DNA from: Bacteroidales bacterium | GTDB taxonomy: Bacteria > Bacteroidota > Bacteroidia > Bacteroidales > JAIPAP01 | Assembly (NCBI GenBank): GCA_021740045.1 | Contig: JAIPAP010000006.1 | Location: forward strand, 1-56,777 | Length of the DNA: 56,777 bases | Direction of reading: 5' to 3' | Part shown: one piece after another, positions 1-14,487 of the stretch | How positions within the stretch are numbered: position 1 is the stretch's first letter | Layout of the letters: the number at the start of each line of letters is the position of its first letter | The notes under the pieces: model-generated | Seen by the model: the letters and a program-made list of their open reading frames with translations, nothing else | Told to the model about the DNA's origin: nothing | The model's database searches: none | Made by a program: the position numbers and the translations under genes

Positions 1-45
1 GCCGCGCTCCCCCGGCCCCCTTCGCCTCCATTTGCTTAAATCCCT

Positions 46-99
46 TGTCTTTCCGAGCGGAGCGAGGAATCTCCTAGATGTTTATCGGACACCAATGTT
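46..99 (+). repeat. REP-like palindromic unit (TGTCTTTCCGAGCGGAGCGAGGAATCT) plus a 36-bp segment repeated at 2869-2904
   Basis: 64-99 GAGGAATCTCCTAGATGTTTATCGGACACCAATGTT vs 2869-2904 GAGGAATCTCCTGCATGTTCACGGGACACCAGTGTT, 30/36 identical by hand alignment. Confidence 0.55.
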
Positions 100-178
100 T
101 AAAAATCAATGCTTTTCAAAAATTTCTTGTTATTATCATCAAAAATGCTTATCTTTTCGAGCACTAATAAAAGGTGTT

Positions 179-1306
179 ATGGAAGATAGAATCATAAACA
201 TAGGAACATTTTCCTATTCGAGAGCGCAATTGTTAAAAGCGCGGCTGGAGGCCGAGGGTATTGATTGTTTTCTGGCCAATGTAACCCGTATCCGTTCCGA
301 TGTTCCAGGCGGGGTGAATCTTTTGATCAACGAAAAGGATTCGGAAAAAGCCCTGGAGCTCATAGATGTATTTAAAAATGCGGCGGGCAGTGAAAAAGAA
401 GGATCACTCCGCAAGCTTAAACAAGTTAGAAAGATTATGGTGCCGGTGGATTTTTCGGAACATTCGAAAAATGCCGCCCTTTTCGCCCTTGGTATTGCTG
501 CCCCATTAAAAGCAGAAATACGGATTGTACATGCCTATTACAATCCGGCAACTCATGCCGAGCCATTTGATGGCACTTACAATTATGAGATAACCATCGA
601 TAAATACGTTAAAGAGCTCGAAACTAATGCCCGTAAAAGGCTTGATGAGATGAAGGATTTTTTGCGATCTGAAGCCAGGAAATATAATTATACGGGCTTA
701 CGGGTCTCAACCAGGCTTGTTAATGGTTTTGAGGTTAGCTCTATATTACAAATGAGTGAAGAGTATAAGCCGGGTATAATTGTTCTGGGTACAAGGGGTA
801 AGAACGGAAAATTAAAAACGCTGGTGGGCAGCGTTACTACCAGGGTTATTGATAAGGCCGGTGTTCCTGTTTTGGTAGTGCCCGAAGGAGCCCGTTTTAA
901 AGAGGTGGGTCAAGCCAACAGGGTTATGTATGCCACCGATTTTGATGATTATGATTTCAGGGCTTTGCGCAGGTTGATGAGCTTTGTTCGTCCTTTTGGC
1001 ATGCAGGTATATTGTGTGCATATTTGTTGCCAAGCTACATCCCCGTATGATAGGGCCAAAATGAATGAACTGGAAAATCATTTTAAAAATGAGGTGGATG
1101 ATGTGGAGGTGTTTTTCGATATTATTGAAAGTGACAATGTGATTGATGGCTTTAACCAATACATCCATGCCAAAGACATCGATTTGGTCTCCATTACCGT
1201 TCATAAACGTAATCTTATTGAGAAATGGCTAAATCCTGACATCACTAAAAAGTTACTTTTTAACACCAACAAGCCTATTTTAATTTTTCATGCGAGCGGA
1301 GGCTGA
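179..1306 (+). CDS. Universal stress protein (two Usp domains) with short N-terminal DUF2007-like domain
   Basis: KIMVPVDFSEHS, IIVLGTRG...LVGSVTTRVI...VPVLVVP and a second Usp domain (VMYATDF...PILIF). N-terminal AQLLKARLEAEGIDCF motif. Start moved from TTG 32 to ATG 179. Confidence 0.85.
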   Translation: MEDRIINIGTFSYSRAQLLKARLEAEGIDCFLANVTRIRSDVPGGVNLLINEKDSEKALELIDVFKNAAGSEKEGSLRKLKQVRKIMVPVDFSEHSKNAALFALGIAAPLKAEIRIVHAYYNPATHAEPFDGTYNYEITIDKYVKELETNARKRLDEMKDFLRSEARKYNYTGLRVSTRLVNGFEVSSILQMSEEYKPGIIVLGTRGKNGKLKTLVGSVTTRVIDKAGVPVLVVPEGARFKEVGQANRVMYATDFDDYDFRALRRLMSFVRPFGMQVYCVHICCQATSPYDRAKMNELENHFKNEVDDVEVFFDIIESDNVIDGFNQYIHAKDIDLVSITVHKRNLIEKWLNPDITKKLLFNTNKPILIFHASGG

Positions 1307-1400
1307 TTCCGGTTGGGAATAATAATGCAGGTATTGCCAACTCAAAGTCGGGTATGAGTATGGTTCTCTTATTACTGATGGCATGAATAGAAAGGCTTCT

Positions 1401-1763
1401 TTACAATGTAGGATAAAACGCGTGCTCGATGTGTTTTAGCTTTTCTTGTGTAGGGGTGAGGATAATGGAAATAATATCGAAACGGGCTTCTTTTCTGATT
1501 TCGTTCCATACCAAATATTGATTGGCTGCTCTTACCAGGAAACGCTGTTTGGTTTTATTTACCCACATTTCCGGTTCACCCATAAGATTCGAGCGCCGGG
1601 TTTTCACCTCAACAATTACGATGTATTCATCATTTTCGGCAATGATATCGATCTCGTTTTTACCAAAGCGCCAGTTGGTGGCCCTTATCGTATATCCTTT
1701 GCCTTTCAAATGGCCCAGGGCAAGCTCCTCACCCCGGTCACCCAATTCATTATGTTCTGCCAT
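1401..1763 (-). CDS. yraN: YraN family (UPF0102) putative endonuclease
   Basis: HNELGDRGEELA...NWRFGKNEIDIIA...VEVKTR...RFDIISI...HIEHAF signature. Confidence 0.9.
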   Translation of the reverse strand: MAEHNELGDRGEELALGHLKGKGYTIRATNWRFGKNEIDIIAENDEYIVIVEVKTRRSNLMGEPEMWVNKTKQRFLVRAANQYLVWNEIRKEARFDIISIILTPTQEKLKHIEHAFYPTL

Positions 1764-2794
1764 CAGTTTACCAGGTATTTGAAAACCAAATTATAAAGAA
1801 TTACAATAAAAAGAAAGAGAAAAAGCACAAAAAGCGCTGTGCCCAGGATTTTTTTCCATTGATTTCGCTGAACCACTTGTTTTTCGGGTTCCTGGAAATG
1901 GATCTTCACCTCTTCATCCACCGAAAGATCAACCCGCCTTCCCATAATGATGGGTTGATTCACATCAAGATGACCGGCCGGAAACCCAAAACAAACAGGG
2001 TAATCGTACTCTTCTACAGCCCCGGCAATGATCTCCGCGGCCGATTTACCAAAAGGGATCGCATTATCATTCATCTTGGTCATTCCTCCCACGATCAAAC
2101 CTGCCAGGTTGCTTAGCTTGCCCGAGCGTTTCAGTTGCTGCATCATCCGGTCCAAATGATAGAGATACTCATCCACTTCTTCAATAAACAGGATTTTACC
2201 TTGCGGGTTTATATCCGATTGGGTTCCCGTAAGATTATAAAGAATGGAAAGGTTACCGCCCACAATCAACCCGCTTGCATTCCCCTTCCGATTCAGCGCA
2301 TTTGCCTGTAGCGTATATAATGGCTGTTCATTTCCAAATAAAATGGCTTTCATGTTTTGAATATCTGGAGATTGAGCCGCATCTTCAGTAAAATTAAAGG
2401 CCATAGGAGCATGCAGGGTTTCAATTCCTAAAACCTGGTTAATATGGGCATGCATTACGGTAATATCGCTAAAGCCAATGATCCATTTGGGTGAATTCGA
2501 AAAACGGCTAAAATTCAACCGATCGATAATCCTCACGGTGCCGTAGCCGCCACGGGCACATAAAATGGCTTTGACGCTTTCATCATCGAGCATTTGCTGA
2601 AAATCGGAAAAGCGGTCCTCATCGGTGCCCGAAAACTGATGGTGTTCATTAAGCAAATTGTTGCCCAGCACTACTTCCAGCCCCCAGCTTTTTAAAGTTG
2701 CTACTGCCGCTTCAATTTCCTTCAGGCTTATCTTTTTTGCCGGGGCCACTATCGCTATTTTATCGCCTTGTTTTAGTGATGGAGGTGTTATCAT
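1763..2794 (-). CDS. LD-carboxypeptidase (peptidase S66) with C-terminal hydrophobic tail
   Basis: CARGGYG, IGFSDIT (catalytic Ser), GGNLS, ILFIEEV (Glu), FPAGH (His). Ends in a TM-like stretch. Confidence 0.9.
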   Translation of the reverse strand: MITPPSLKQGDKIAIVAPAKKISLKEIEAAVATLKSWGLEVVLGNNLLNEHHQFSGTDEDRFSDFQQMLDDESVKAILCARGGYGTVRIIDRLNFSRFSNSPKWIIGFSDITVMHAHINQVLGIETLHAPMAFNFTEDAAQSPDIQNMKAILFGNEQPLYTLQANALNRKGNASGLIVGGNLSILYNLTGTQSDINPQGKILFIEEVDEYLYHLDRMMQQLKRSGKLSNLAGLIVGGMTKMNDNAIPFGKSAAEIIAGAVEEYDYPVCFGFPAGHLDVNQPIIMGRRVDLSVDEEVKIHFQEPEKQVVQRNQWKKILGTALFVLFLFLFIVILYNLVFKYLVN

Positions 2795-2868
2795 TGAATT
2801 AGTTTTTTTCTTGAAAGGATAAAATTAAGGGTTTTTAGTGAATCATCTCTTTTTGCATAAATCCGAGA

Positions 2869-2904
2869 GAGGAATCTCCTGCATGTTCACGGGACACCAG
2901 TGTT
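2869..2904 (+). repeat. Second copy of the 36-bp intergenic repeat (see 64-99)
   Basis: Direct sequence similarity to 64-99. Confidence 0.55.
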
Positions 2905-2974
2905 CCTTAATAAAACTAAAGACAAAAAAGGCTGTTGAACAAAACCTCCTTTTTTGATCGATAATTCAATTCAT

Positions 2975-2982
2975 TATCTTTG
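2975..2982 (+). promoter_or_regulatory. Bacteroidota sigma-ABfr -7 element for metG
   Basis: TATCTTTG matches TAnnTTTG; TTTG at 2953-2956 is a candidate -33 element. Confidence 0.65.
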
Positions 2983-3013
2983 CCCCTCATTTTGAAAAAG
3001 GAAAGGATTTGTC

Positions 3014-5071
3014 ATGGCTGAGAAGAAGAATTACAAGCGCTATACAGTTACGGCCGCATTGCCTTATGCTAACGGTCCATTACATATTGGTCATCTTGCA
3101 GGAGTATATATTCCGGCCGATATTTATGCCCGTTACCTCCGCTCAAAAGGCGAAGAAGTGGCCTTTATTTGCGGATCGGATGAGCATGGAGTGCCTATTA
3201 CCATCAAAGCCCGTAATGAAGGGAAGTCGCCGCAGGAAGTTGTGGATGAATATCATGAGATCAATAAGAAATCCTTCGAGGAATTGGGCATTACTTTCGA
3301 TATCTATTCCCGAACCTCCAATGCCATTCATCATATTACTTCTGCTGAATTCTTTAAGAAGCTGTATGACGAGGGAAAATTCATCGAACGGGAAAACGAA
3401 CAATACTTTGACGAAGAAAATAACCAATTCCTTGCCGACCGCTATATAACCGGAACCTGTCCCAACTGTGGCTATGAGAAAGCCTATGGCGATCAGTGTG
3501 AGAGCTGTGGCACTTCATTAAGCCCCAATGAATTGATCAATCCCACCTCAGCCATTAGTGGGAACAAACCTGTTTTACGAAAGACCAAGCATTGGTACCT
3601 GCCGCTCGATAAGTACGAACCCTGGTTAAAAAAATGGATTCTTGAAGACCATAAAGATGACTGGAAACCCAATGTTTATGGCCAATGCAAATCATGGCTC
3701 GACAAAGGGCTGCAAGCCCGGGCAGTGACCCGCGATTTGAACTGGGGCGTGAAAGTGCCGCTGGAAGAAGCCGAGGGAAAAGTGCTTTATGTATGGTTTG
3801 ATGCTCCTATCGGATACATTTCGGCTACCAAGGAATGGGCTACCGATAACGACAAGGATTGGAAACTTTATTGGAAAGACGAAGAAACCAAACTGGTGCA
3901 TTTTATCGGGAAGGACAACATAGTTTTTCATTGTATAATTTTCCCTGCTATGCTTAAGGCTGATGGTTCATATATTCTTCCTGATAATGTTCCGGCCAAT
4001 GAATTTCTGAATCTCGAAAACGATAAAATCTCAACATCGCGCGGATGGGCTGTTTGGCTTAATGAATACCTTGAAAAGTTTCCGGGTAAGCAGGATGTGC
4101 TACGTTACGTACTTTGTGCTAATGCTCCTGAAACCAAGGACAATAACTTTACCTGGAAAGACTACCAGGACCGGAACAACAATGAGTTGTTGGCGATATT
4201 GGGCAATTTTGTCAACCGGACCCTGGTACTCACCCAAAAATATTTCGATGGAAAGGTTCCTGGAGTAGGTGAATTAACCACCGAAGATAAAGCTGCTTTA
4301 GATGAAATGAAAGCCTATCCCGGCAAGATTGCCAAAAGCATGGAGAATTACCGTTTCAGGGAAGCCTTGAATGAAATGATGAACCTGGCCCGCCTGGGCA
4401 ATAAATACCTCACCGATCATGAGCCCTGGAAAAAAATAAAAACTGATGAGGAGCGGGTTAAAACCATCCTGAATATATCGCTGCAAATTGCTGCTAACCT
4501 GTCGATAGTGGCAGAGCCATTTATCCCGTTTACGGCCGAAAAGATGGTCAGGATGTTGAATATAGAGCAGAAATATTGGGAGGAAGCCGGATCGGCATCT
4601 TTGCTGGAAACCGGTCATCAGCTTAATAAAGCGGAATTCCTGTTCAATAAGGTTGAAGATGAAACCGTAGAAAATCAGAAACAGAAACTGATCGAAGAAT
4701 ATGAAAAGCGGCTGCAAAGGGAAAGCAAGGTGGCACCTGCAAAGGATCCTATAAAATTCGATGATTTCAGCAAGCTCGATATCCGTTCGGCCACCATTCT
4801 GGAGGCCGAGAAAGTTCCCAAGACCAAAAAGCTGATCAAAATGACAGTGGATACAGGTGTTGATAAACGTACTATTGTTTCGGGTATAGCGGAATATTTC
4901 AAGCCGGAGGATGTTATCGGTAAGCAAGTAAGTGTCCTGATCAACCTGGAACCCAGAAAGATCAAGGGTATCGAATCCAAAGGCATGATCCTGATGGCCG
5001 AAGATAATGATGGCAGCCTGCATTTCGTTAAGCCTGAGGATGAGATAACCAATGGCTCTGAGGTGAAGTAG
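3014..5071 (+). CDS. metG: Methionine--tRNA ligase
   Basis: [13 protein letters not shown] (HIGH), Zn knuckle CPNC...[19 protein letters not shown] (KMSKS-like), C-terminal tRNA-binding OB domain. Confidence 0.98.
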
Positions 5072-5090
5072 TCATTTGTGCCAAATTTTA

Positions 5091-5098
5091 TAGTTTTG
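5091..5098 (+). promoter_or_regulatory. -7 promoter element for the tRNA fragment/GIY-YIG/tRNA unit
   Basis: TAGTTTTG (TAnnTTTG), 11 nt upstream of the first tRNA fragment. Confidence 0.6.
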
Positions 5099-5109
5099 CA
5101 GGTTGAAAG

Positions 5110-5169
5110 GGCCCCGTAGTTCAACGGATACCTGCCTGCCGGCAGGCAGGGAATAGAGGTTTCCTAAAC
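5110..5169 (+). pseudogene. 5' half of tRNA-Arg(CCT) with a 20-bp palindrome inserted at the end of the D-loop
   Basis: 5110-5130 plus 5151-5169 are identical to 5418-5457; the insert 5131-5150 is CCTGCCTGCCGGCAGGCAGG. Confidence 0.9.
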
Positions 5170-5178
5170 ATTGGATAG

Positions 5179-5427
5179 ATGTATTGGGTTTATGCTATAC
5201 AAAGTGAGATCGATGGCAGAATTTATGTTGGAATAAGTCAAAACGTAGACTTGAGGGTAAACCAGCATAATAAAGGACATACGCGTTCAACTAAAGGATA
5301 TAGACCATGGGGGTTGGTTTATACAGAACAAGTAGGAGAGAGTATGATGGCGGCCCGGAAAAGGGAAAAGTATTATAAATCTGGTATAGGCAGGGAAAAA
5401 ATAAAACAATTGAGTAAGGCCCCGTAG
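5179..5427 (+). CDS. Small stand-alone GIY-YIG nuclease family protein
   Basis: WVYAIQS...RIYVG...RVNQHNKG...STKGYRPW.LVYTE...ARKREKYYKSG.GRE. The TAG stop is tRNA nt 8-10. Confidence 0.9.
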   Translation: MYWVYAIQSEIDGRIYVGISQNVDLRVNQHNKGHTRSTKGYRPWGLVYTEQVGESMMAARKREKYYKSGIGREKIKQLSKAP

Positions 5428-5489
5428 TTCAACGGATAGAATAGAGGTTTCCTAAACCTTAGATACAGGTTCGATTCCTGTCGGGGCTA
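5418..5489 (+). tRNA. tRNA-Arg, anticodon CCT
   Basis: Acceptor stem GGCCCCG/CGGGGCT, D-arm GTTC/GAAT, anticodon arm GAGGT-TTCCTAA-ACCTT, T-arm CAGG-TTCGATT-CCTG. CCA not encoded. Confidence 0.95.
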
Positions 5490-5498
5490 CAAAGGGTG

Positions 5499-5528
5499 AA
5501 GAGAGCTAATTGCTCTCTTTTCTTTTTT
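5499..5528 (+). terminator. Intrinsic terminator after tRNA-Arg
   Basis: AAGAGAGC-TAATT-GCTCTCTT followed by a T tract. Confidence 0.8.
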
Positions 5529-5546
5529 CCAGCACCCTGAACTTGC

Positions 5547-5652
5547 GGTTTCCAAAACCTTAGATACAGGTTCCCTGCCTGCGTGACTGCAGTCAGGCAG
5601 GGATTCCTGTCGGGGCTACGAAGGGTGAAGAGAGCTAATTGCTCTCTTTTTT
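5547..5652 (+). pseudogene. 3' half of tRNA-Arg plus duplicated terminator, with a 28-bp palindrome inserted in the T-loop
   Basis: Matches the intact tRNA from the anticodon arm through the terminator, except the anticodon (CCA for CCT), one change after the discriminator, and the insert 5574-5601 CCTGCCTGCGTGACTGCAGTCAGGCAGG between TTC and GATT. Confidence 0.88.
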
Positions 5653-5812
5653 ATGCCCAGACCACATGATCTGGGAATTATAAGATGTTTGCTTATTGCT
5701 TCAGGTAACAGCGGGCCGGATGTCACCAAGCTCCATACGCCATGCTCTTTGCTTCAAGGGGCGCCTTTCTGCCCTGCAAGCCAGTTAAATTAAAAGCCTA
5801 CATTGGGTACCC

Positions 5813-6460
5813 TTAAAAAAACTCCTCCGTTCTGATATAAAATGGGTCGATGTCATAGTCTTCAAGGTATGCGGCCATTTCTTCTATCATCTGCGAATTA
5901 CCACACAAATAATAAATCGCGTTTTCATCGGGCTGCATATGGGTTTTAAAATAATCGGTGATCCTTCCCTGGTATTGACTGCCGTTTTCGCGCGTGGTAC
6001 AAAAGATCAATCTTTCAGGATCAAAAGCATCATGATCATATGCCTCCGATGTGTACCGTGTACCATGTAAAAGTTGATAATTGAGGTTTGGTTTGCTCTT
6101 CACAAAACTTCGAAAGGGAGCAATACCGGTACCGGTGGCCATAAAGATCAGCTTTTTTTCCTGCAGCTTTTCAATGTTCATCACAAAAAACCCATACGGG
6201 CCTTCAACATGAGCAATGTCACCTTCTTTTAACCGGCTAAGTTTTTCGCTTATATTACCCTTTTCCACGCGCCTGACCAGGATTTCCAGGTAGGGGTCCT
6301 CCTCACCTGAATAAATCGAATATTCCCGGCTATCGTTCCCGAGGCCCACAACGATGTATTGTCCGGCATGAAAAGCCATATCATGGCGCTCGAGGCGGAG
6401 CACAAAGGTGTTATCGGTTAAAAAACGTTTATTCAACACTTTACTGTTGTATGATCTCAT
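5813..6460 (-). CDS. FAD/NAD(P)-binding oxidoreductase, ferredoxin-NADP reductase family
   Basis: REYSIYS (RxYS), EGPYGFF, ATGTGIAPF, YLCGN, C-terminal EEFF. Confidence 0.88.
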   Translation of the reverse strand: MRSYNSKVLNKRFLTDNTFVLRLERHDMAFHAGQYIVVGLGNDSREYSIYSGEEDPYLEILVRRVEKGNISEKLSRLKEGDIAHVEGPYGFFVMNIEKLQEKKLIFMATGTGIAPFRSFVKSKPNLNYQLLHGTRYTSEAYDHDAFDPERLIFCTTRENGSQYQGRITDYFKTHMQPDENAIYYLCGNSQMIEEMAAYLEDYDIDPFYIRTEEFF

Positions 6461-7344
6461 GGGTTTACGGTTTTTTTCACATTCACATGTTTTTCGGCAT
6501 GATAGGATGAGCGTACCAGGGGACCGCTTTCCACATGACCTATTCCACGTTTCAATCCCTCCTCGCGATAAAAGTCATAAACTTCCGGGCGCACATATTC
6601 CTTTACCTGCTCAAGGTGGGAGTCGGGTTGGAGATATTGCCCTATGGTCAGGACATCACAGCCTGCTTCTGCCAAGTCATCCATAAGTTCAAGCACTTCA
6701 CCGGTAGTTTCGCCCAAACCAACCATAATGCCCGATTTGGCCACAAGCCCCGACTCCGAAACAATACGGATCACCTTAAGGCTTCGATCGTAGCGCGCCA
6801 GGTTACGAATTTTTGGCGTTAAGCGTCGCACCGTTTCCATATTGTGTGAGATCACTTCCGGTTGGGCATCGATTATTTTTTGAAGGTGTTCCCTTTTCCC
6901 ATTCATATCAGGAATAAGAACCTCCATGGTAGTTTCCGGGTTCAATTCCTTGATCATCCCGATGGTCTTTGCCCAGAATGCAGCTCCACCATCTTTAAGA
7001 TCATCACGGGCGACAGAGGTAACCACAGCATGTTTAAGCTGCAATTTTCGGATGGTCTCAGCCAACCGCCTTGGCTCCTTCCAGTCAACTGCTCCCGGAA
7101 GTTCATTCAACACCCCGCAAAAGCGGCAGTTGCGCGTACATTTTTCCCCTAATATCATAAACGACGCGGTGCCTGCACTCCAACATTCCCCCCGGTTGGG
7201 ACAATTTCCGCTGGTACATATGGTGTGAAGATCATGCTCTTCGATGAGCCTTTTTACTTTCGAATATTCTTTTCCATGTGGCAACGGCGCCTTCAGCCAG
7301 TCGGGTAACCTGCGTTTTTTCTTAGTTTCCACATCTTTATTCAT
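6457..7344 (-). CDS. lipA: Lipoyl synthase
   Basis: CTSGNCPNRGEC (CX4CX5C), CTRNCRFC radical SAM motif, GPLVRSSYHA. Confidence 0.97.
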   Translation of the reverse strand: MNKDVETKKKRRLPDWLKAPLPHGKEYSKVKRLIEEHDLHTICTSGNCPNRGECWSAGTASFMILGEKCTRNCRFCGVLNELPGAVDWKEPRRLAETIRKLQLKHAVVTSVARDDLKDGGAAFWAKTIGMIKELNPETTMEVLIPDMNGKREHLQKIIDAQPEVISHNMETVRRLTPKIRNLARYDRSLKVIRIVSESGLVAKSGIMVGLGETTGEVLELMDDLAEAGCDVLTIGQYLQPDSHLEQVKEYVRPEVYDFYREEGLKRGIGHVESGPLVRSSYHAEKHVNVKKTVNP

Positions 7345-7512
7345 ATATCTCCTCCTATTATTTTAATTTGGAACAAATCTAAATAATAAGGTTTAGATAG
7401 GGAAATGGTGTGCAAGAATGTATATGAATTATTATGAACGATCATTTGTAAAACTGCTCGAGACTGTTGAAAAATATTTCATTCGTCTCTTGAAAGTAAT
7501 GATTTCATTAAC

Positions 7513-7534
7513 TATTTTTGTCTTAAATTGACAA
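7513..7534 (+). promoter_or_regulatory. -7 promoter overlapped by an inverted repeat (putative operator of the HTH regulator)
   Basis: TATTTTTG at 7513-7520; TTGTC-N7-GACAA at 7518-7534. Confidence 0.55.
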
Positions 7535-7553
7535 GTATTAATTTACCTGAATA

Positions 7554-7880
7554 ATGAAGCAAACATTTGGTGAACATATAAGGCAACTGAGACTTTCAAA
7601 GGGCTGGACGCTAACTAAACTGGCAGCACAATTAGATATGGATTCGGCCAACTTAAGTAAAATAGAAAATGGAAAACGGGAATTTGACCAAAAACGGATA
7701 GCAAAACTAGCTAATGCATTTGACTTGGATGTTAACGAACTAACGGAAGAATTCTTAAGTGATCAATTTGCGAAAGCAATTTATGCATCGAAATCAAGCT
7801 TAAATAGTTTAAAATTGGCTGAGGAGAAAGTCAGGTATCTCCAACAGAAGAATGCCAAACAAAGCAGTATAAACTTGTAG
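7554..7880 (+). CDS. XRE-family HTH regulator (putative R-M controller)
   Basis: FGEHIRQLRLSKGWTLTKLAAQLDMDSANLSKIENGKR; first gene of the R-M operon. Confidence 0.85.
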   Translation: MKQTFGEHIRQLRLSKGWTLTKLAAQLDMDSANLSKIENGKREFDQKRIAKLANAFDLDVNELTEEFLSDQFAKAIYASKSSLNSLKLAEEKVRYLQQKNAKQSSINL

Positions 7881-7888
7881 TTATTCTC

Positions 7889-9331
7889 ATGTATACAGCA
7901 AACAATATATCAAAAGTAAATGAAGACCTCATATTAGAATATTTGAAGGTGCCATCCGATGTCCAGAGAATTAAATTAAAGGACAGGTATGATCATAAAT
8001 TCAGGATTAATAAATCATTAAACAGGTCCTTAATCTCATTTCAAGCGAATAAGTCCGAGCCACTATATCGTTGGTTTAAGTTCAAGGAAGGTTTTTCCAG
8101 CGCCTTTGTAAATACTATCCTGGCTGAATTCTCAAATCCACAAAAGCAACAGGTTATACTTGACCCTTTTGCAGGTATTGGCACAACCCTTACAACCAGC
8201 CTTATAAGTGGACATAGAGCAATCGGAATAGAATTGTTAAAACCGGCAATTTTGGCTGCCAAAGCCAGAATCGCCAGCCACCAAGTCAAACAACCGGAAC
8301 TGAATCAATTAATCATTGATATTGAAACTCTGGATTTTTATGATCACGCAGTTGAAGACAAGTATTTTTTCAAACATATTACCATAACAAAAGGAGCATT
8401 CTTAAAGGAAACGGAAATTGCTATTGCCAACGTGAATAAATATCTATCAACGCTGCGAGCAGATAGTACTATCCGTCAATTGGCTGAATTTGCGATGACA
8501 TCAGTTTTGGAAGACATATCCTTTACAAGAAAAGACGGACAATACTTGCGTTGGGATTACAGGGCTGATAGAAATCTGAAGTCAAAATTCAGTAAGGGAG
8601 AAATCCATGAGTTAAAGCAAAAATTATTGGAAAAGTTGTATTTGATAAGAGAAGATATATTCGCATCAAAACAAATTGATATTCAGGATTATTATGAACT
8701 CTACAACGCTAGTTCATTGGAAAAAATTCATGATCTTGAAGACGAATCCGTTGATCTTGTGATTACCTCACCTCCCTATTGTAACAGATATGACTATACG
8801 AGAACATATGCTTTGGAACTAGCCTATAATGGAGTTGATGACCAGGAGATTAAAAAATTAAGACAAACGCTCTTGTCTGCAACTGTTGAAAATAAGAGCA
8901 AGTACAATATTCTAAAAGAAATCTACACAAAATATGGTAAGCAAAGCACTTTTGACGAAATTGTAGGTTCTTTCCGCAAGCAAGCTGCACTGAATGAATC
9001 CATTGCAGGTCTCTATTATCACAGGAATAAATTAAACAACAAGAATATTCCTTACATGGTTAGCAATTACTTTTTTGAAATGAATTTTATTATATGGGAA
9101 CTTGAGCGTGTATTAAAAAAAGGTGGTAAAGTTGTAATGGTCAATGATAATGTTAGGTACAATGGATCTGAAATCCCTGTAGATTTAATCTTATCGGAGT
9201 TTGCAGCTGATGCGGGATTATATACGGATGTCATTTGGATACTTGAAAAAGGTAAAGGAAATAGTAGTCAGCAAATGGGCGCTCATGGCAGGAAGGAAAC
9301 TAGAAAATGTGTATATGTTTGGTCAAAATAA
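7889..9331 (+). CDS. DNA amino-methyltransferase, probably N4-cytosine, alpha motif order
   Basis: ILDPFAGIGTT (motif I) precedes VITSPPY (motif IV). Confidence 0.88.
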   Translation: MYTANNISKVNEDLILEYLKVPSDVQRIKLKDRYDHKFRINKSLNRSLISFQANKSEPLYRWFKFKEGFSSAFVNTILAEFSNPQKQQVILDPFAGIGTTLTTSLISGHRAIGIELLKPAILAAKARIASHQVKQPELNQLIIDIETLDFYDHAVEDKYFFKHITITKGAFLKETEIAIANVNKYLSTLRADSTIRQLAEFAMTSVLEDISFTRKDGQYLRWDYRADRNLKSKFSKGEIHELKQKLLEKLYLIREDIFASKQIDIQDYYELYNASSLEKIHDLEDESVDLVITSPPYCNRYDYTRTYALELAYNGVDDQEIKKLRQTLLSATVENKSKYNILKEIYTKYGKQSTFDEIVGSFRKQAALNESIAGLYYHRNKLNNKNIPYMVSNYFFEMNFIIWELERVLKKGGKVVMVNDNVRYNGSEIPVDLILSEFAADAGLYTDVIWILEKGKGNSSQQMGAHGRKETRKCVYVWSK

Positions 9332-9337
9332 ATAGCT

Positions 9338-10294
9338 ATGAATAACTATACTGAGAACCTGAGAAAGTTAAAATCACTGTTAATAGTCACCTCTCTTCAA
9401 AAACGCCGCGATGTAGAAGCATTTAATAAAATCAAGAAAATAGACATTGAGCTAAAATGGCAACCCTTATCAAATTTGCTGATAGAAAATGATGTTTGGG
9501 ATTATGTCGTGAAGACCAGACAATATGAACCTAAGTATGTGTTTTGCCACCCTGATATTATTATAGCAGATAAATCAACCAGTTTATATTACCGGGGACT
9601 TTGTGGGTTGTCAATGAAAGCAGCAAAAGATTATTTTGGAGCTATTGAAAAAATAGAATCCGGTAATAAGCAGGCCAGGCTAGGCAAAGAGAAAGCACTA
9701 AGAATAGCCCGCATATACAATATGTTTATCTGCTCAATTATCAAAGGGTCATATAAGTGGACACTAGAAAATGGAAAAAGGACCTTAATTGCAACGCTTG
9801 GAATTACCTTGGATGGGATAATGAGGAACCGGGTAGGTGCCTTAGCAGAAGAACGTATAAGAACCATGGTATTTGAATGGTTGATAGAAAAGGGATTAAT
9901 AATGGATGAAATCACTGAGATTGATTCAAATGAATTTGAGCTTAAAGATGATATTATCATGAGGTTTTCATCGGAACCGGACATATATTTTACAAGGAAG
10001 TCCGGTTCAGGTGAAGAATTACTTGCACTTATAGAAATCAAAGGAGGGATTGATCCTGCTGGAGCACTTGAAAGATATGGAGCCGCAACAAAGTCCTTTC
10101 AGCAAGCATTAAAAGAGAATCCCCGGTGCAAGAACTTTTTTCTAACAGCTGTTTTTACCCAAGAGCTCTTAAGCCGAATTAAAGGTGACCGCCTTGTCGA
10201 AAAATACTATGATATCGTCAAGATTCTGGAGGACCCTAAAGTGAAAGATGATTTTTTTGACGAGTTATTTCACTATACGTTGAGATTGATCTAA
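9338..10294 (+). CDS. Type II restriction endonuclease, XcyI-like family
   Basis: FSSEPDI...IEIKGGIDP..ALER.G.A.KS PD-(D/E)xK core resembling the XcyI family; directly follows the MTase. Confidence 0.7.
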   Translation: MNNYTENLRKLKSLLIVTSLQKRRDVEAFNKIKKIDIELKWQPLSNLLIENDVWDYVVKTRQYEPKYVFCHPDIIIADKSTSLYYRGLCGLSMKAAKDYFGAIEKIESGNKQARLGKEKALRIARIYNMFICSIIKGSYKWTLENGKRTLIATLGITLDGIMRNRVGALAEERIRTMVFEWLIEKGLIMDEITEIDSNEFELKDDIIMRFSSEPDIYFTRKSGSGEELLALIEIKGGIDPAGALERYGAATKSFQQALKENPRCKNFFLTAVFTQELLSRIKGDRLVEKYYDIVKILEDPKVKDDFFDELFHYTLRLI

Positions 10295-10566
10295 CGTCCC
10301 TCAACCCTAAAGCAAGAGTATAACATATATAAGCTGATTTAGCGTAATATATCCTTTCTTATTTACATAAGTTCTAAATTGTTACATATCGGCAATAAAC
10401 AGCTTGAATTTCAATAAAAGTATTTTTACTTTTATAAGTTACTAACGATGGCTGTCCATATTCTGCAAATTTAACTGGGAAGGTGTTGATTGAACACAAA
10501 ATATACTAGTTTTCAAAGGGTTAAATCTAACTAATAATCCGAATAATACATAAAACCAATTAAATT

Positions 10567-13500
10567 ATGAGAACCTTTACATTTTCCTTGGCATTATTGC
10601 TCTCCACAGCAATTTCGGTGCACTGTCAAGAAAAAGCACCGGTAAAATCAAATGAATTAAACCCCTCCAGCCAAACACTTGTAGAGGGGGATTCTTCCAG
10701 GCAGCTTCTTTTACAAAAAAACACAAATAGTTGCGCCAATCAAAACACTGACCGCTTCGGGCATTTCGAATATATTTATTGCGGTGGAGCCGAGCCTGTT
10801 TATACCATCTATTTTTGGGGGATAGCTCTTGATAGCCTGGAATTGGGTTACGGCGATGAGGCGGCTATTTTTGACGGCAATAAACAAGTGGGCACCAAAT
10901 ATTTTGATTCTTCGCCGCAACCGGGCTCCTTTGATTGGGATATGATAGCTTGTTCACAACTTCAAAATGAGCCCGGTTATACTCCCGGCAATCCTTTCAC
11001 CCTTAAATGTTGGGCTGATGATGAGCAAATCGAATCGGAGAACTATGTGCTTACCTTCCATGATCCATACGGAGATGCCTGGACGGAGCCGGTTTTCCCT
11101 GAGGGCGACGGAGTTTATAGCATAATTACCGTTGAATGGACATCTTTAGTTACGGTTAACGGCATCATTTACGCGGCCGATAACGAGGAACCGCTTTCGA
11201 ATGTGGATGTTACCATTACGGGAACTTCTTTCTCAGCGATTACCGATGAAGATGGTTATTATGAAATCGATAGCATACCGGCAGGGGTTTATGATATGGT
11301 AGCATCTGCCCAGGGTTTTCAAACGGAGACCCAATCGGATGTTGAACTTGAAGAAGGACAGCAGGTCACTGTGGATTTCTTTTTGGAAGCCAGTGAGGTT
11401 GCTCCTTTCCTTATCGATGCTCAACCAGGACCTGGTTACATAGTCCTCACCTGGGAAGGGATAAACAGCAATAGTGAGCGAACCGGGCACTTCGATTTTT
11501 ATCAATGTGATACCGGCCCCAGTTGGACACAATTCATTCAGCAAGCTCAAATTAATAATGAAGATATGGTTGCCGGTGATGAGGTAGCAGTCTATGATGG
11601 AGATCTGTTGGTAGGGGCATTTACATTGTCCCAGGTTTGCTCACCCGAAAATGTCTTTGAAAATGATTTTCCGGCATGCTCGGATGTTGGCAATGGTGAT
11701 GGGTATACCGTTGGAAATCCGGTATCCTATGTGGCCTGGGATGAGAGTACAGGTATCGAGATCAGTGATTGTACCTTTGAGTTTTTAGATCCCTATGGCG
11801 ATGCCTGGACAGAGCCTACCTTCCCGCCCGGTGAATCGCCATACAGTATAATGACGTTTCAGTTTTACAGCGATTATGAACCATCGTATAACATTTACCG
11901 CGACGATGAGCTGATCGGAGAGGGCTTTGCCGGTAATCATTATACGGATTTCGACGCCAATCAGGGTACCGAATATTGTTATTGTGTCACCCAGATCATG
12001 CCTGACGGGGATGAATCCGATCCGTCCAATATCCGTTGTGCAAGTCCCACGGGTGTATTCAATGCTCCCTTGCTGAGAAAAGCTGAACCGGGGGTGGAAA
12101 GTGTTGAGTTAAGCTGGGAGCCTATTGGTTCAGCCTTCTATGGAGATTACTTCCAATTTCAAGGTGTTGGAGGGCCGGTATGGACAAATTATATCAGCAT
12201 GGCCACTGTGAATAATCAAGACATGCTCCCCGAGGATGAAATTGCCATTTTTGATGGGGATGTGATTTGTGCTGCCTATATCTTAGAGCGTATTTGTACA
12301 CCTGATAACATGTATGAGAATGACCTCCATGCATTTATGATGGGTCCGGGCGGAGACACCTTATATCATCCCGGAAATCCGGTAATTTACAAAGCATGGG
12401 ATAAAAGTGAGGGAACCGAAATTGAGGATTTCGAGGTAAATTACCTCGACCCTAACGGAGATGCCTGGACGGAACCTTTCTTCCCGGAAGGCGACGGCGA
12501 ATATTCCATTATTGAACTGAACTTTTCATTTGATCCATGGAGTTTTAATGTTTATGAACAAAGCGGAAACCTCCTGGAAGAAAACGTCATTGGCCATAGT
12601 TACACCGTCGAGGATGTAACTCCAGGCAGCGATGAGTGTTATTACATTACCCAAATTCTCGAAAACGGAGAGGAATCCGATCCTTCCAATATGCTTTGTG
12701 AAGTTGCCCTCCCAAAGCAACATTATGAATTGGCAGAAGGGTATCAATTTATTTCCAGCCGCTACATTCCTGACGACCCTGATATGTTGGATGTTTTGGA
12801 AGATATCCTGGATGAACACCTTGATTTTGTGCGTAACAGTAACGGTAACATGGTTCAGAAAGTTGGCCCCGAGTGGATTAACGGCATAGGCGACTGGATT
12901 ACCGAAGAAGGATATCTGGTCAAAATGAACCTGCCCAATGACTTAAGCATAGAAGGACAGGTGATGAACCCATTTAAGACCATAACGCTTGATCCGGGTT
13001 ATGAATTCATAAGTTATTTGCCCGATAGTGCAGTAAACGCTCTTACGGCTTTTGAAAACATACTTGATGAACAACTTGACTTTATCAGGAACAGCAATGG
13101 CGAAATGCTGCAAAAAATCGGAGATGATTGGATTAACAATATTGGAGATGCAGCACCCGGTGAAGGGTATCTTGTTAGGATGGAACAGGCGCATCAGTTA
13201 GTTTATTCCGGCAATGGCATTTGTCCCGATGTTTTCACCTTCCCTGAACAAGGTGTAACCTATGAAGCCGAAGTTATTAATGGCCAATGCTGGATAGCTG
13301 AAAACGCCAATTCCGGTGAATTCCTTTCATCGGGTGAACCGATGACCGATAATGATACCATTGAAAAGTATTGCCTGAAAGGCCTGCCCTATAATTGTGA
13401 TAAATACGGTGGCTTGTATACGTGGGATGAGGCTATGCAATACAATGCCGATACTATCAATTATGGTATTTGTCCGGAGGGCTGGTATGTTGCAACCGAT

Positions 13501-14487
13501 CATGAGTGGAAAGTGCTGGAAGGAAGCGTTGATAGCCAATATGGAGTTGGTGATCCGCAGTGGGAAAACATTGGCTCCCGAGGTTATGATGCCGGCTTTA
13601 TGTTGAAAGAAGAAGTTGGATGGTATAGTAATGGAAATGGCAAAAATTTGTATGACTTTGCTATGCGCCCCGCCAGTTGGACTTTATCTCCAGATTGGGT
13701 AGGTATGAGTACATGGTTTTGGAATGCCAATGAAACAAATGATCAGGAAGCATGGTACAGATATGCTACATATGATGAACCTGGAGTGAGCCGAAATCCC
13801 GATGGAGATAAAACCATTGGATTAAGTGTTCGATGTGTTCACAGGGACGTGCCTGCCAACAATACTTTACATCAGTCTAAACAGAAACCTGAAGAATCAT
13901 TTTTACAGGGCGGTAATCCCGCCGATGCGGTGTTTATGATCTATCTTCAGCCGGCTGTCGGAATCCATAAAGGAGACCGAATTGCAGCCTTCGATGGAGA
14001 TAAAATGGTTGGATTAGCTACCATCCAATCAAACGATTGGCGTGAGAATCAGTTACCTGTTTTTAGCACATTGGCTAAAGGCGCAGGTTATAAGCCCGGG
14101 AATTCAATACAGTTAAAGCGGGTAACTGAAGAAGGCCTTGATGAAATGGAATTTGACCTTGTGGCCTATTATGATGCCTATACCAGCAGGACATTTCCTG
14201 AAGGTGATGGTTTATATGGCATTGCTAAGGTTTCAACAGGATTGGAAAACAATGAGGCTTATATTTCTATTTATCCAAATCCGGCCAATAACAAAGTGAA
14301 TATTAAAGCAAGCTCCGATATAAGAAGTATAGAGATTTATCAGCAGGATGGAAAACTGCTCAGGGTCATTAATAACATTGCCCAAACAGCATTTATTATT
14401 GATCTCTCCCGCTTTGACCCGGGGACATACATCCTTGAGATCAGGACCAATAACAAATTTAACCGGGAGAAACTGGTCGTCCGGTAA
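10567..14487 (+). CDS. Large secreted modular protein: repeated unnamed domain X, carboxypeptidase-regulatory-like, Fn3-like, tandem domain Y, FISUMP domain, T9SS type A CTD
   Basis: Signal peptide; GQCWIAEN...YGGLYTW...GICPEGW...SVRCV (FISUMP); C-terminal IYPNPA...GTYILEI...KLVVR. Confidence 0.85.
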   Translation: MRTFTFSLALLLSTAISVHCQEKAPVKSNELNPSSQTLVEGDSSRQLLLQKNTNSCANQNTDRFGHFEYIYCGGAEPVYTIYFWGIALDSLELGYGDEAAIFDGNKQVGTKYFDSSPQPGSFDWDMIACSQLQNEPGYTPGNPFTLKCWADDEQIESENYVLTFHDPYGDAWTEPVFPEGDGVYSIITVEWTSLVTVNGIIYAADNEEPLSNVDVTITGTSFSAITDEDGYYEIDSIPAGVYDMVASAQGFQTETQSDVELEEGQQVTVDFFLEASEVAPFLIDAQPGPGYIVLTWEGINSNSERTGHFDFYQCDTGPSWTQFIQQAQINNEDMVAGDEVAVYDGDLLVGAFTLSQVCSPENVFENDFPACSDVGNGDGYTVGNPVSYVAWDESTGIEISDCTFEFLDPYGDAWTEPTFPPGESPYSIMTFQFYSDYEPSYNIYRDDELIGEGFAGNHYTDFDANQGTEYCYCVTQIMPDGDESDPSNIRCASPTGVFNAPLLRKAEPGVESVELSWEPIGSAFYGDYFQFQGVGGPVWTNYISMATVNNQDMLPEDEIAIFDGDVICAAYILERICTPDNMYENDLHAFMMGPGGDTLYHPGNPVIYKAWDKSEGTEIEDFEVNYLDPNGDAWTEPFFPEGDGEYSIIELNFSFDPWSFNVYEQSGNLLEENVIGHSYTVEDVTPGSDECYYITQILENGEESDPSNMLCEVALPKQHYELAEGYQFISSRYIPDDPDMLDVLEDILDEHLDFVRNSNGNMVQKVGPEWINGIGDWITEEGYLVKMNLPNDLSIEGQVMNPFKTITLDPGYEFISYLPDSAVNALTAFENILDEQLDFIRNSNGEMLQKIGDDWINNIGDAAPGEGYLVRMEQAHQLVYSGNGICPDVFTFPEQGVTYEAEVINGQCWIAENANSGEFLSSGEPMTDNDTIEKYCLKGLPYNCDKYGGLYTWDEAMQYNADTINYGICPEGWYVATDHEWKVLEGSVDSQYGVGDPQWENIGSRGYDAGFMLKEEVGWYSNGNGKNLYDFAMRPASWTLSPDWVGMSTWFWNANETNDQEAWYRYATYDEPGVSRNPDGDKTIGLSVRCVHRDVPANNTLHQSKQKPEESFLQGGNPADAVFMIYLQPAVGIHKGDRIAAFDGDKMVGLATIQSNDWRENQLPVFSTLAKGAGYKPGNSIQLKRVTEEGLDEMEFDLVAYYDAYTSRTFPEGDGLYGIAKVSTGLENNEAYISIYPNPANNKVNIKASSDIRSIEIYQQDGKLLRVINNIAQTAFIIDLSRFDPGTYILEIRTNNKFNREKLVVR

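Follow-up and report, generated by a model that had tools for sequence, protein, structure and literature searches.

A small GIY-YIG nuclease gene and a conserved palindrome as a putative selfish cassette in a bacterial tRNA-Arg(CCT) gene

In the genome of a Bacteroidales bacterium (GenBank assembly GCA_021740045.1) the tRNA-Arg(CCT) gene downstream of metG is partly repeated around a short gene for a GIY-YIG nuclease of 82 amino acids. The window, that is the whole stretch of DNA that was analysed, is contig JAIPAP010000006.1 with its 56,777 nucleotides (nt), and the region in question, 5072–5650, is located between metG and an oxidoreductase gene on the minus strand. We suggest that this region harbors a selfish cassette of tRNA genes, whose own parts would be the minimal single-domain nuclease gene and a palindrome with a conserved stem. 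The nuclease would be guided by the hairpin in a similar way as Ssn enzymes such as SsnA of Neisseria meningitidis, and the cassette would spread by recombination between tRNA repeats. We regard this reading as the probable one, with some reserve, and we are less confident about its details.

An earlier reading of the DNA, made from the sequence only, had described a promoter, the 5′ half of a tRNA, a GIY-YIG open reading frame (ORF), an intact tRNA-Arg(CCT) with terminator, and a tRNA 3′ half with a second terminator. ARAGORN, Rfam, Pfam, a repeat search and blastn recover the half-tRNA, nuclease gene, tRNA and half-tRNA in this order and at these places (Table 1). The ORF begins 9 nt after nt 40 of the 5′ piece (5169) and encodes 82 amino acids, and its TAG stop (5425–5427) is identical with nt 8–10 of the intact tRNA, as had been read. 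The two halves, in contrast, had been described in part only. The 5′ half was taken as nt 1–40, and these are present, but they are interrupted by a perfect palindrome between A21 and G22 of the D-loop; nt 22–40 match the intact tRNA letter for letter, and beyond them the homology continues weakly as far as about nt 52, where the ATG of the nuclease gene (5179) aligns with nt 50–52. The 3′ half and the second terminator are present as well, but the former holds a longer palindrome with the same stem, which splits the TTCGATT of the T-loop between C and G, and its anticodon is CCA, changed from the CCT of the intact tRNA. The second terminator is known from the copy, since the terminator scan reports the first one only. 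As DNA, the 28-bp palindrome stacks on the T stem (−19.1 kcal/mol, z −5.16). The palindromes flank the nuclease gene: one ends 28 nt before its ATG and the other starts 146 nt after its stop.

Table 1. Features of the cassette region and its surroundings in the window, and further hairpin-split pieces on other contigs of the same genome
Feature	Position	Strand	Basis
metG, methionyl-tRNA synthetase, marker of the native site	3014–5071	+	Pfam tRNA-synt_1g, E 1.1e-160; metG–tRNA-Arg(CCT) synteny in genomes G011 and G024
−7-like promoter motif	5091–5098	+	sole plus-strand match to Bacteroidota-type TAnnTTTG in 3100–7400
Displaced 5′ tRNA piece, nt 1–21	5110–5130	+	100% copy of 5418–5438 (repeat search, blastn)
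Perfect 20-bp palindrome between D-loop A21 and G22	5131–5150	.	arms 10+10, 100% complementary
Displaced 5′ tRNA piece, nt 22 to ~49	5151–5178	+	blastn, nt 22–48 (5151–5177) at 92.6%
GIY-YIG nuclease gene, 82 amino acids, single domain	5179–5427	+	PF01541, E 4.7e-14
Intact tRNA-Arg(CCT)	5418–5490	+	ARAGORN; Rfam, 66.9 bits
Terminator hairpin, copy 1	5498–5520	+	sigma-70/terminator scan
Displaced 3′ tRNA piece, nt 29–55	5547–5573	+	89–96% copy
28-bp palindrome, stem as in the 20-mer, in the T-loop between C and G (standard positions 56 and 57)	5574–5601	.	
Displaced 3′ tRNA piece, nt 56–73, and terminator copy 2	5602–5650	+	98% copy of 5473–5521
Further hairpin-split pieces (Leu, Gly CCC and Gly GCC among them)	C147:27380–27900; C123:9959–10060; C133:32250–32400		
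Further hairpin-split pieces, same list	C107:1–480 with C152:9500–9952; C11:7600–7938		

As to the proposed promoter, there is one −7-like motif ahead of the 5′ piece that matches TAnnTTTG, which we take to be the −7-type promoter consensus of the Bacteroidota, but matches of this type are not more numerous in the region than expected by chance. Comparable motifs precede the 5′ pieces at many related loci. A scan with a sigma-70 model, which is unfit for this phylum, predicted no more than a single weak site, located within the ORF and not better than chance. The TAnnTTTG-type scan found no promoter-like motif in the stretch that separates the 5′ piece from the intact tRNA. As in addition the ORF overlaps the tRNA, the intact tRNA would have to be read through the nuclease gene, and the co-transcription of both that had been proposed is plausible. 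No other tRNA-Arg(CCT) was found in the genome (36 tRNAs listed in a 3.9-Mb draft of 161 contigs, 97% complete). Read-through of this sole gene would make the cassette hard to silence. A cut by RNase P at the 5′ end of the tRNA would strip the ORF of its stop codon.

The unit is compact, and no integrase had been noticed in it. In agreement with this, a Pfam analysis of positions 1–14487 (10 likely genes of at least 100 amino acids among the 19 ORFs listed) did not reveal any recombinase. tRNA genes are well-known targets of integration, which leaves behind direct repeats of their 3′ parts. The pieces could in principle be scars of integrase insertion and excision, i.e. duplicated att sites, or else an artefact of assembly in a genome that is a draft of 161 contigs. 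We consider both extremely improbable: besides the missing integrase, the 5′ piece is duplicated too and precise palindromes are placed inside the pieces, the same layout is found in dozens of unrelated assemblies, and contigs of a second sample reproduce both stretches that bear the junctions. More precisely, the contigs of two sequencing runs, one of which may have supplied this DNA while the other stems from a second sample in the same study, reproduce 4800–5464 and 5452–5767/5900 with zero differences; the 13-nt overlap of these stretches (5452–5464, the repeated anticodon region) is bridged by a 41-nt contig only and by none that has 31 nt on each side of it. This assembly is not alone in showing the layout. 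An integrase-borne island and a group I intron were likewise rejected. For the island a tyrosine or serine recombinase gene is missing near the tRNA among the likely genes analysed, and for a group I intron in tRNA-Arg(CCU) the Rfam matches over 4900–5900 at E ≤ 1 comprise the tRNA and a chance miRNA match only.

The nuclease protein matches PF01541 with 52.9 bits (cut-off 22.6), and the domain spans residues 1–68. Eleven positions are invariant in 30 homologs, among them Y5, Y16, G18, R26, H30, N31, and E63; presumably Y5 and Y16 are the motif tyrosines and E63 is the metal-binding glutamate, and we take R26, H30, and N31 to have their usual roles as well. The AlphaFold2 model of the 82 residues has a pLDDT of 94.3, and Foldseek matched it with a probability of 1.00 to UPF0213 proteins, which rank first, and to Slx1 (TM-scores 0.56–0.69). 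Model and matches support the three-stranded sheet with flanking helices that makes up the GIY-YIG fold. A search of solved structures with the single sequence found no match, and a profile search retrieved two UPF0213 proteins (E 3.9e-10 and 2e-9) and also the structure-specific nuclease Slx1. By domain, residues, and fold the protein is a member of the GIY-YIG superfamily. The nuclease looks active, as the catalytic residues are invariant and the fold is predicted with confidence. It consists of the catalytic domain alone and scores 17.7 bits with TIGR01453, the model of group I intron endonucleases, which has a cut-off of 56.05. No homolog was found with tblastn at E ≤ 1e-6 in a phage collection (50,697 records) or in a plasmid collection. 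Three matches in IMG/VR are all situated at or near contig ends; one of them adjoins a tRNA-Arg(ACG), and another contains the palindrome. These are probably host flanks of prophage calls and we do not count them as phage carriage.

The cassette is not confined to this genome. With the protein as query, homologs at E ≤ 1e-8 were found in 100 out of a sample of 401 genomes of the order, from 78 of 236 genera, often in tandem with a spacing of 337–401 nt. We analysed 74 loci: the window's own, four from another search, the best 29 of the order search and the next 40 as listed, with about 70 weaker matches of the order search outside this sample. An intact tRNA is located within 330 nt at 58 loci and a tRNA-like piece at 60; at 68 of the 74 there is either of them, and all of the 65 nearby tRNAs have the same orientation as the nuclease gene. 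For a random gene the chance of a nearby tRNA is about 1% (estimated from 36 tRNAs times ~1 kb in 3.9 Mb). The sequence-only reading had anticipated such an association in relatives and had proposed a minimal selfish unit that spreads through tRNA loci by break-induced duplication. The association holds, whereas break-induced duplication is only one possible route.

Two types of unit can be discerned. In the upstream type, a 5′ piece with a hairpin in its D-loop is followed by the nuclease gene and the intact tRNA, mostly tRNA-Arg (ACG, CCT, CCG, TCG). In the downstream type, the intact tRNA is followed by the nuclease gene and a 3′ piece with a hairpin in its T arm; this type is found at Leu, Asn, Val, Met, His, Pro, Asp, and Ala and also at Arg CCT. 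The locus described here looks like an upstream-type unit together with the leftover of a downstream type that is without its nuclease gene, and the same double layout is present in genome G379 (locus L051). Of 90 gene copies 16 end within the next tRNA, seven of these at nt 8–10 as in the window, 14 lie at most 150 nt upstream of a tRNA and 28 at most 150 nt downstream. The remaining 32 have no intact tRNA within 150 nt, and many of them are inner units of tandems or are situated at contig ends. Every insertion point falls into a loop of the tRNA cloverleaf, in keeping with a structure-directed process on single strands.

An empty site, as it had been expected at metG–tRNA loci, was found in genome G024, where metG is followed by a plain tRNA-Arg(CCT). 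In G011 the orthologous site consists of metG, the tRNA, and a hairpin-split 3′ piece only; both genomes are distant relatives from the same order and not strains. G005 and G011 contain hairpin-bearing pieces without an adjoining nuclease gene. The contigs of four sequencing runs contain no joined form without the cassette, but contigs drop rare variants. In run X3, a freshwater metagenome of another study, there is a contig from a different organism whose match to the tRNA ends with the T-loop C (position 5472 of the window) and is followed by a CCCGCCCG-type hairpin; its insertion point is that of the 3′ piece of the window. At four tRNA-Leu loci of the downstream type (L028, L052, L053, L059) the ORF continues across the T-arm piece and has its stop codon within the hairpin, and the proteins end in a common ..GLSTDR tail that is encoded by tRNA and hairpin DNA; at L060 the tail is ..LSADR.

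The stem of the palindrome, the arm CCTGCCTG and its complement, is conserved. Among 34 related loci the identical 20-mer is present at the same D-loop site in 11, with 13 copies in 11 genomes of 10 families. The nuclease proteins at these loci are 44–58% identical to that of the window, and the conservation of the palindrome far exceeds that of the protein. Elsewhere there are variants of the 20-mer that are off by 1–3 nt, including one in a Woesebacteria metagenome-assembled genome, and longer variants in which the stem is kept and the loop varied. Structure alone would permit compensatory changes, yet the stem is kept letter for letter; the fixed stem sequence thus argues for a sequence-specific recognition by a protein. 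Other clades of the nuclease are found with other hairpins, namely with the CTGTCTACCGACAGG type at tRNA-Leu and with TCCCGA..TCGGGA and TCCGCC..GGCGGA types elsewhere. The hairpin type, scored as a label on a quick tree of 76 proteins and 87 columns in which related rows share labels, requires 22 changes compared to 36.4 in shuffles, with none of 200 shuffles as low, and the tRNA-Leu hairpin type forms one clade with 98% support. A stand-alone unit of the nuclease only, as had been supposed, does not agree with these findings, because the sequence-conserved palindrome is an integral second part.

The tRNA pieces behave differently from the hairpin. Of 96 ungapped pieces 75 are 100% identical to the adjacent tRNA, and the 62 pieces with comparators have a mean identity of 99.0% to the local tRNA versus 86.4% to the tRNAs of other genomes, the local identity being at least as high as the best non-local one in 59 of them; these figures are biased upward, as the pieces were found via their similarity to the local tRNA. 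Since the pieces follow the local tRNA and the hairpin type tracks the nuclease clade, the sequences identify the ORF and the hairpin as the invading parts and the tRNA pieces as local duplications. At one locus (L043, G202:C47, 1762–1799) the palindrome has grown to a stem of 17 bp, as the tRNA flank of one side is repeated in mirror image on the opposite side, apparently by a fold-back duplication at the DNA level that is centered on the hairpin.

A pair of a small nuclease and a hairpin is known from the Ssn family, site-specific single-stranded DNA nucleases with hairpin repeats, which is represented by SsnA/NTS of N. meningitidis (Chenal et al. 2025, PMC11893778). Ssn enzymes are described there as single-domain GIY-YIG proteins of 94 amino acids, with hairpin repeats on both sides of their genes; binding of the hairpin requires single-stranded DNA, which is also the only kind of DNA that they cut, just upstream of the hairpin, and the authors remark on the layout of hairpin, gene, and hairpin, which is similar to that of insertion sequences (PMC11893778). 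The cassette resembles this system in its single-domain GIY-YIG protein of 80–100 amino acids (82 here), in 20–50 nt inverted repeats that flank the gene, also at related loci, and in that nuclease and hairpin appear to co-vary. In contrast to Ssn, the hairpin sequence is unrelated, the hairpins are precisely placed within duplicated pieces of tRNA genes, and the nuclease gene is fused to the transcription unit of the tRNA. The word tRNA occurs zero times in the main text of the Ssn article and, among the passages shown of its readable supplementary spreadsheets, in gene descriptions only (PMC11893778). By analogy, an integral palindrome makes it likely that the mechanism is shifted towards hairpin-guided cleavage as in Ssn.

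The mechanism that we infer would be the following. The cassette would have nested into the sole tRNA-Arg(CCT) gene found and would have displaced the native promoter and the first 40–52 nt of the tRNA upstream. Behind the nuclease ORF a full copy of the tRNA would have been regenerated, which supplies the stop codon of the ORF, and the native tRNA promoter would now drive the whole unit. Whenever its own hairpin becomes single-stranded, be it in replication, in the uptake of DNA, or while the busy tRNA gene is transcribed, the nuclease would bind to it and nick the adjacent single-stranded DNA of the tRNA gene. The host would then recombine the repeated tRNA segments, or replication would restart between them, and in this way the unit would be copied in tandem or into tRNA genes whose D or T arms are similar; selection would retain only those products with one intact tRNA. 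With transcription from the tRNA's own promoter the cassette could not be silenced without loss of the tRNA.

Several points weigh against this proposal. A hydrolytic nuclease alone cannot insert a palindrome of 20 bp, nor does it explain the precise seating in copies of the local tRNA. The published SRM search motif of Ssn has no match in 4000–7000 of the window or near the other small GIY-YIG genes of the genome (seven matches genome-wide). By sequence the nearest relatives with solved structures are UPF0213 proteins (EF2693 and BH0048; PDB 1YWL and 1ZG2). These are of the same size and single-domain and are also the best relatives by fold, but the titles of their structure entries give no tRNA or palindrome context. 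At six of the 74 loci the automated test detects no tRNA piece, although one of these six, L059, has a tRNA-Leu T-arm piece by eye. The two runs that contain the locus show no presence/absence polymorphism. The shared labels on the hairpin tree and the bias of the piece identities, both mentioned above, belong to the same side.

The main competing explanation starts from the phage nuclease SegB. The cassette protein could be a free-standing homing endonuclease of this type, which would cut the D- or T-loop sequence of tRNA genes in duplex DNA, with double-strand-break repair copying the gene; the palindromes would then be immunity plugs that ruin the recognition site or that break the homology by which the gene would be deleted. 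We consider this explanation possible but unlikely. SegB has about 220 amino acids. It possesses a DNA-binding part, whereas the protein of the window with its 82 amino acids is a catalytic domain only, far below the cut-off of TIGR01453. SegB belongs to the tRNA cluster of T-even phages and recognizes a tRNA T-stem-loop motif within a double-stranded site of 27 bp (PMC2330249), it drives a recombination-dependent tandem amplification of segB and tRNA, it is inactive when truncated at its C-terminus, and the survey of its occurrence was limited to phage genomes (PMC13096335). The location of a GIY-YIG nuclease gene among tRNA genes is common to both systems, and the T-loop, which contains the target motif of SegB, is one of the two insertion points of the cassette. 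The palindrome there even sits inside the reverse complement of the SegB cleavage motif RAWTSGAAC (GTTC/GATT; PMC13096335). The tandem amplification by SegB resembles the tandem units common among the cassettes, and the empty site in G024 is a gene-less allele of the kind expected for a homing endonuclease, albeit in a distant relative. However, SegB is phage-borne and has no palindrome and no split or regenerated tRNA. Moreover, the intact tRNA of the window retains both putative sites and would still be cleavable, and a mere plug need not stay an identical 20-mer across 10 families, nor track the clade of the nuclease.

In the remaining genome, hairpin-split pieces are present at no fewer than seven other tRNA loci, namely Arg CCG, Met, Leu, Gly CCC, Gly GCC, and Asn, the latter at two contig ends, compared to only four or five small GIY-YIG genes, and solo hairpin pieces thus outnumber the nuclease genes. 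Pieces without an adjoining nuclease gene are present on contigs C51, C61, C123, C133, and C147. This excess may parallel the relation of non-autonomous to autonomous elements. In IS200/IS605 and REP/RAYT elements, which are likewise small, the non-autonomous hairpin copies also exceed the enzyme gene, and their cis sites are DNA hairpins that are read in single-stranded form, which is known there and proposed here. Their enzymes are HUH tyrosine transposases with covalent intermediates, whereas a GIY-YIG hydrolase is incapable of strand transfer, so that the spread of the cassette would have to rely on host recombination. The comparison draws in part on the Ssn article (PMC11893778).

The same solo pieces bear on a third explanation, that the module serves the host or has been domesticated. 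It might guard tRNA genes from integrating elements or tune the transcription and processing of the tRNA, or the hairpins might stabilize the nuclease mRNA. The catalytic residues are under purifying selection, the module appears from the sequence to be obligately co-transcribed with an essential tRNA, and the hairpin is located 5′ of the ORF in the upstream type and at its 3′ end in the downstream type, as would suit a protector of mRNA ends. The authors of the Ssn study raise domestication for Neisseria (PMC11893778). Nevertheless, we think that a role for the host is improbable. Within single genera the occurrence is already patchy, tRNA genes of many isotypes are hit, and neither the copy number nor the tandem arrays are constant. 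In the genome of the window the solo pieces exceed the nuclease genes, the fold-back palindrome of L043 is an event at the DNA level, and in a hairpin of purely structural function in RNA compensatory changes would be expected to be tolerated, in contrast to the invariable stem found here.

Neither the descriptions of SegB nor those of Ssn/SRM cover the architecture of the cassette. In the literature searched, which excludes subscription papers and PDF supplements, no account of bacterial tRNA genes with a GIY-YIG/palindrome cassette came to light, and the cassette is apparently undescribed. As a tentative suggestion that goes beyond the favored reading, the cassette may represent a new class of mobile elements without transposase or integrase. 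In such a class a hairpin-guided GIY-YIG nuclease and a 20-bp palindrome would target single-stranded loops of tRNA genes and would use the conservation of tRNAs as portable homology arms; they could in this way cross phyla (Bacteroidota, Ignavibacteriota, Patescibacteria), would be unsilenceable as the 5′ leader of an essential tRNA, and the palindrome would be separately mobile into D- and T-loops.

If the selfish cassette is real, the tRNA genes of many environmental bacteria host an unrecognized and very small selfish element. This would explain odd pseudogene pieces of tRNAs, "tRNAs" with 20-nt inserts in the D-loop, and tandem arrays at which assemblies break and annotation goes astray. 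Hairpin-specific single-stranded DNA nucleases would gain a natural role as drivers of mobile cassettes, and many new pairs of nuclease and hairpin with fixed and simple recognition sequences would become available as tools for single-stranded DNA. The cassette would also be a clean model of a parasite that ties its expression to an essential gene.

Some further observations concern the other hairpins and the surroundings of the cassette. At the tRNA-Arg(CCG) locus C51:8035–8387 (L111) a 5′ piece with a D-loop palindrome is followed by the intact tRNA and by a second full-length copy with a 20-nt insert in the D-loop, which ARAGORN lists as a "tRNA-???" of 97 nt and which scores 52.2 bits with Rfam; no nuclease gene is located alongside. 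A tRNA-Met piece (C61:30419–30507) has a CCCGCCCG-type hairpin in its D-loop. The tRNA-Leu pieces (GAG/CAG) contain double hairpins with A/T-rich loops, and those of Gly CCC and Gly GCC contain double hairpins in the T-loop. The tRNA-Asn pieces have a TCCCGAT..ATCGGGA hairpin and are situated beside paralogous GIY-YIG genes at contig ends, whose proteins are 31% identical to that of the window. A hairpin of the same stem type as in the cassette tips a longer imperfect hairpin in a repeat of about 70 nt, which is not derived from a tRNA, has no Rfam match at E ≤ 0.01 and is conserved on four contigs (L107–L110; C46:28440–28520, C6:44640–44720, C28:6470–6550, C5:44690–44770), three of the four copies being near contig ends. 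Upstream in the window, two genes before metG, there is a small UPF0102/NERD-like nuclease-related gene on the minus strand (1401–1763), which is probably unrelated to the cassette. Downstream, at 7554–10294, Pfam identifies a restriction-modification module with a helix-turn-helix controller-like gene, an N6/N4 DNA methylase, and an XcyI/BsoBI-like endonuclease.

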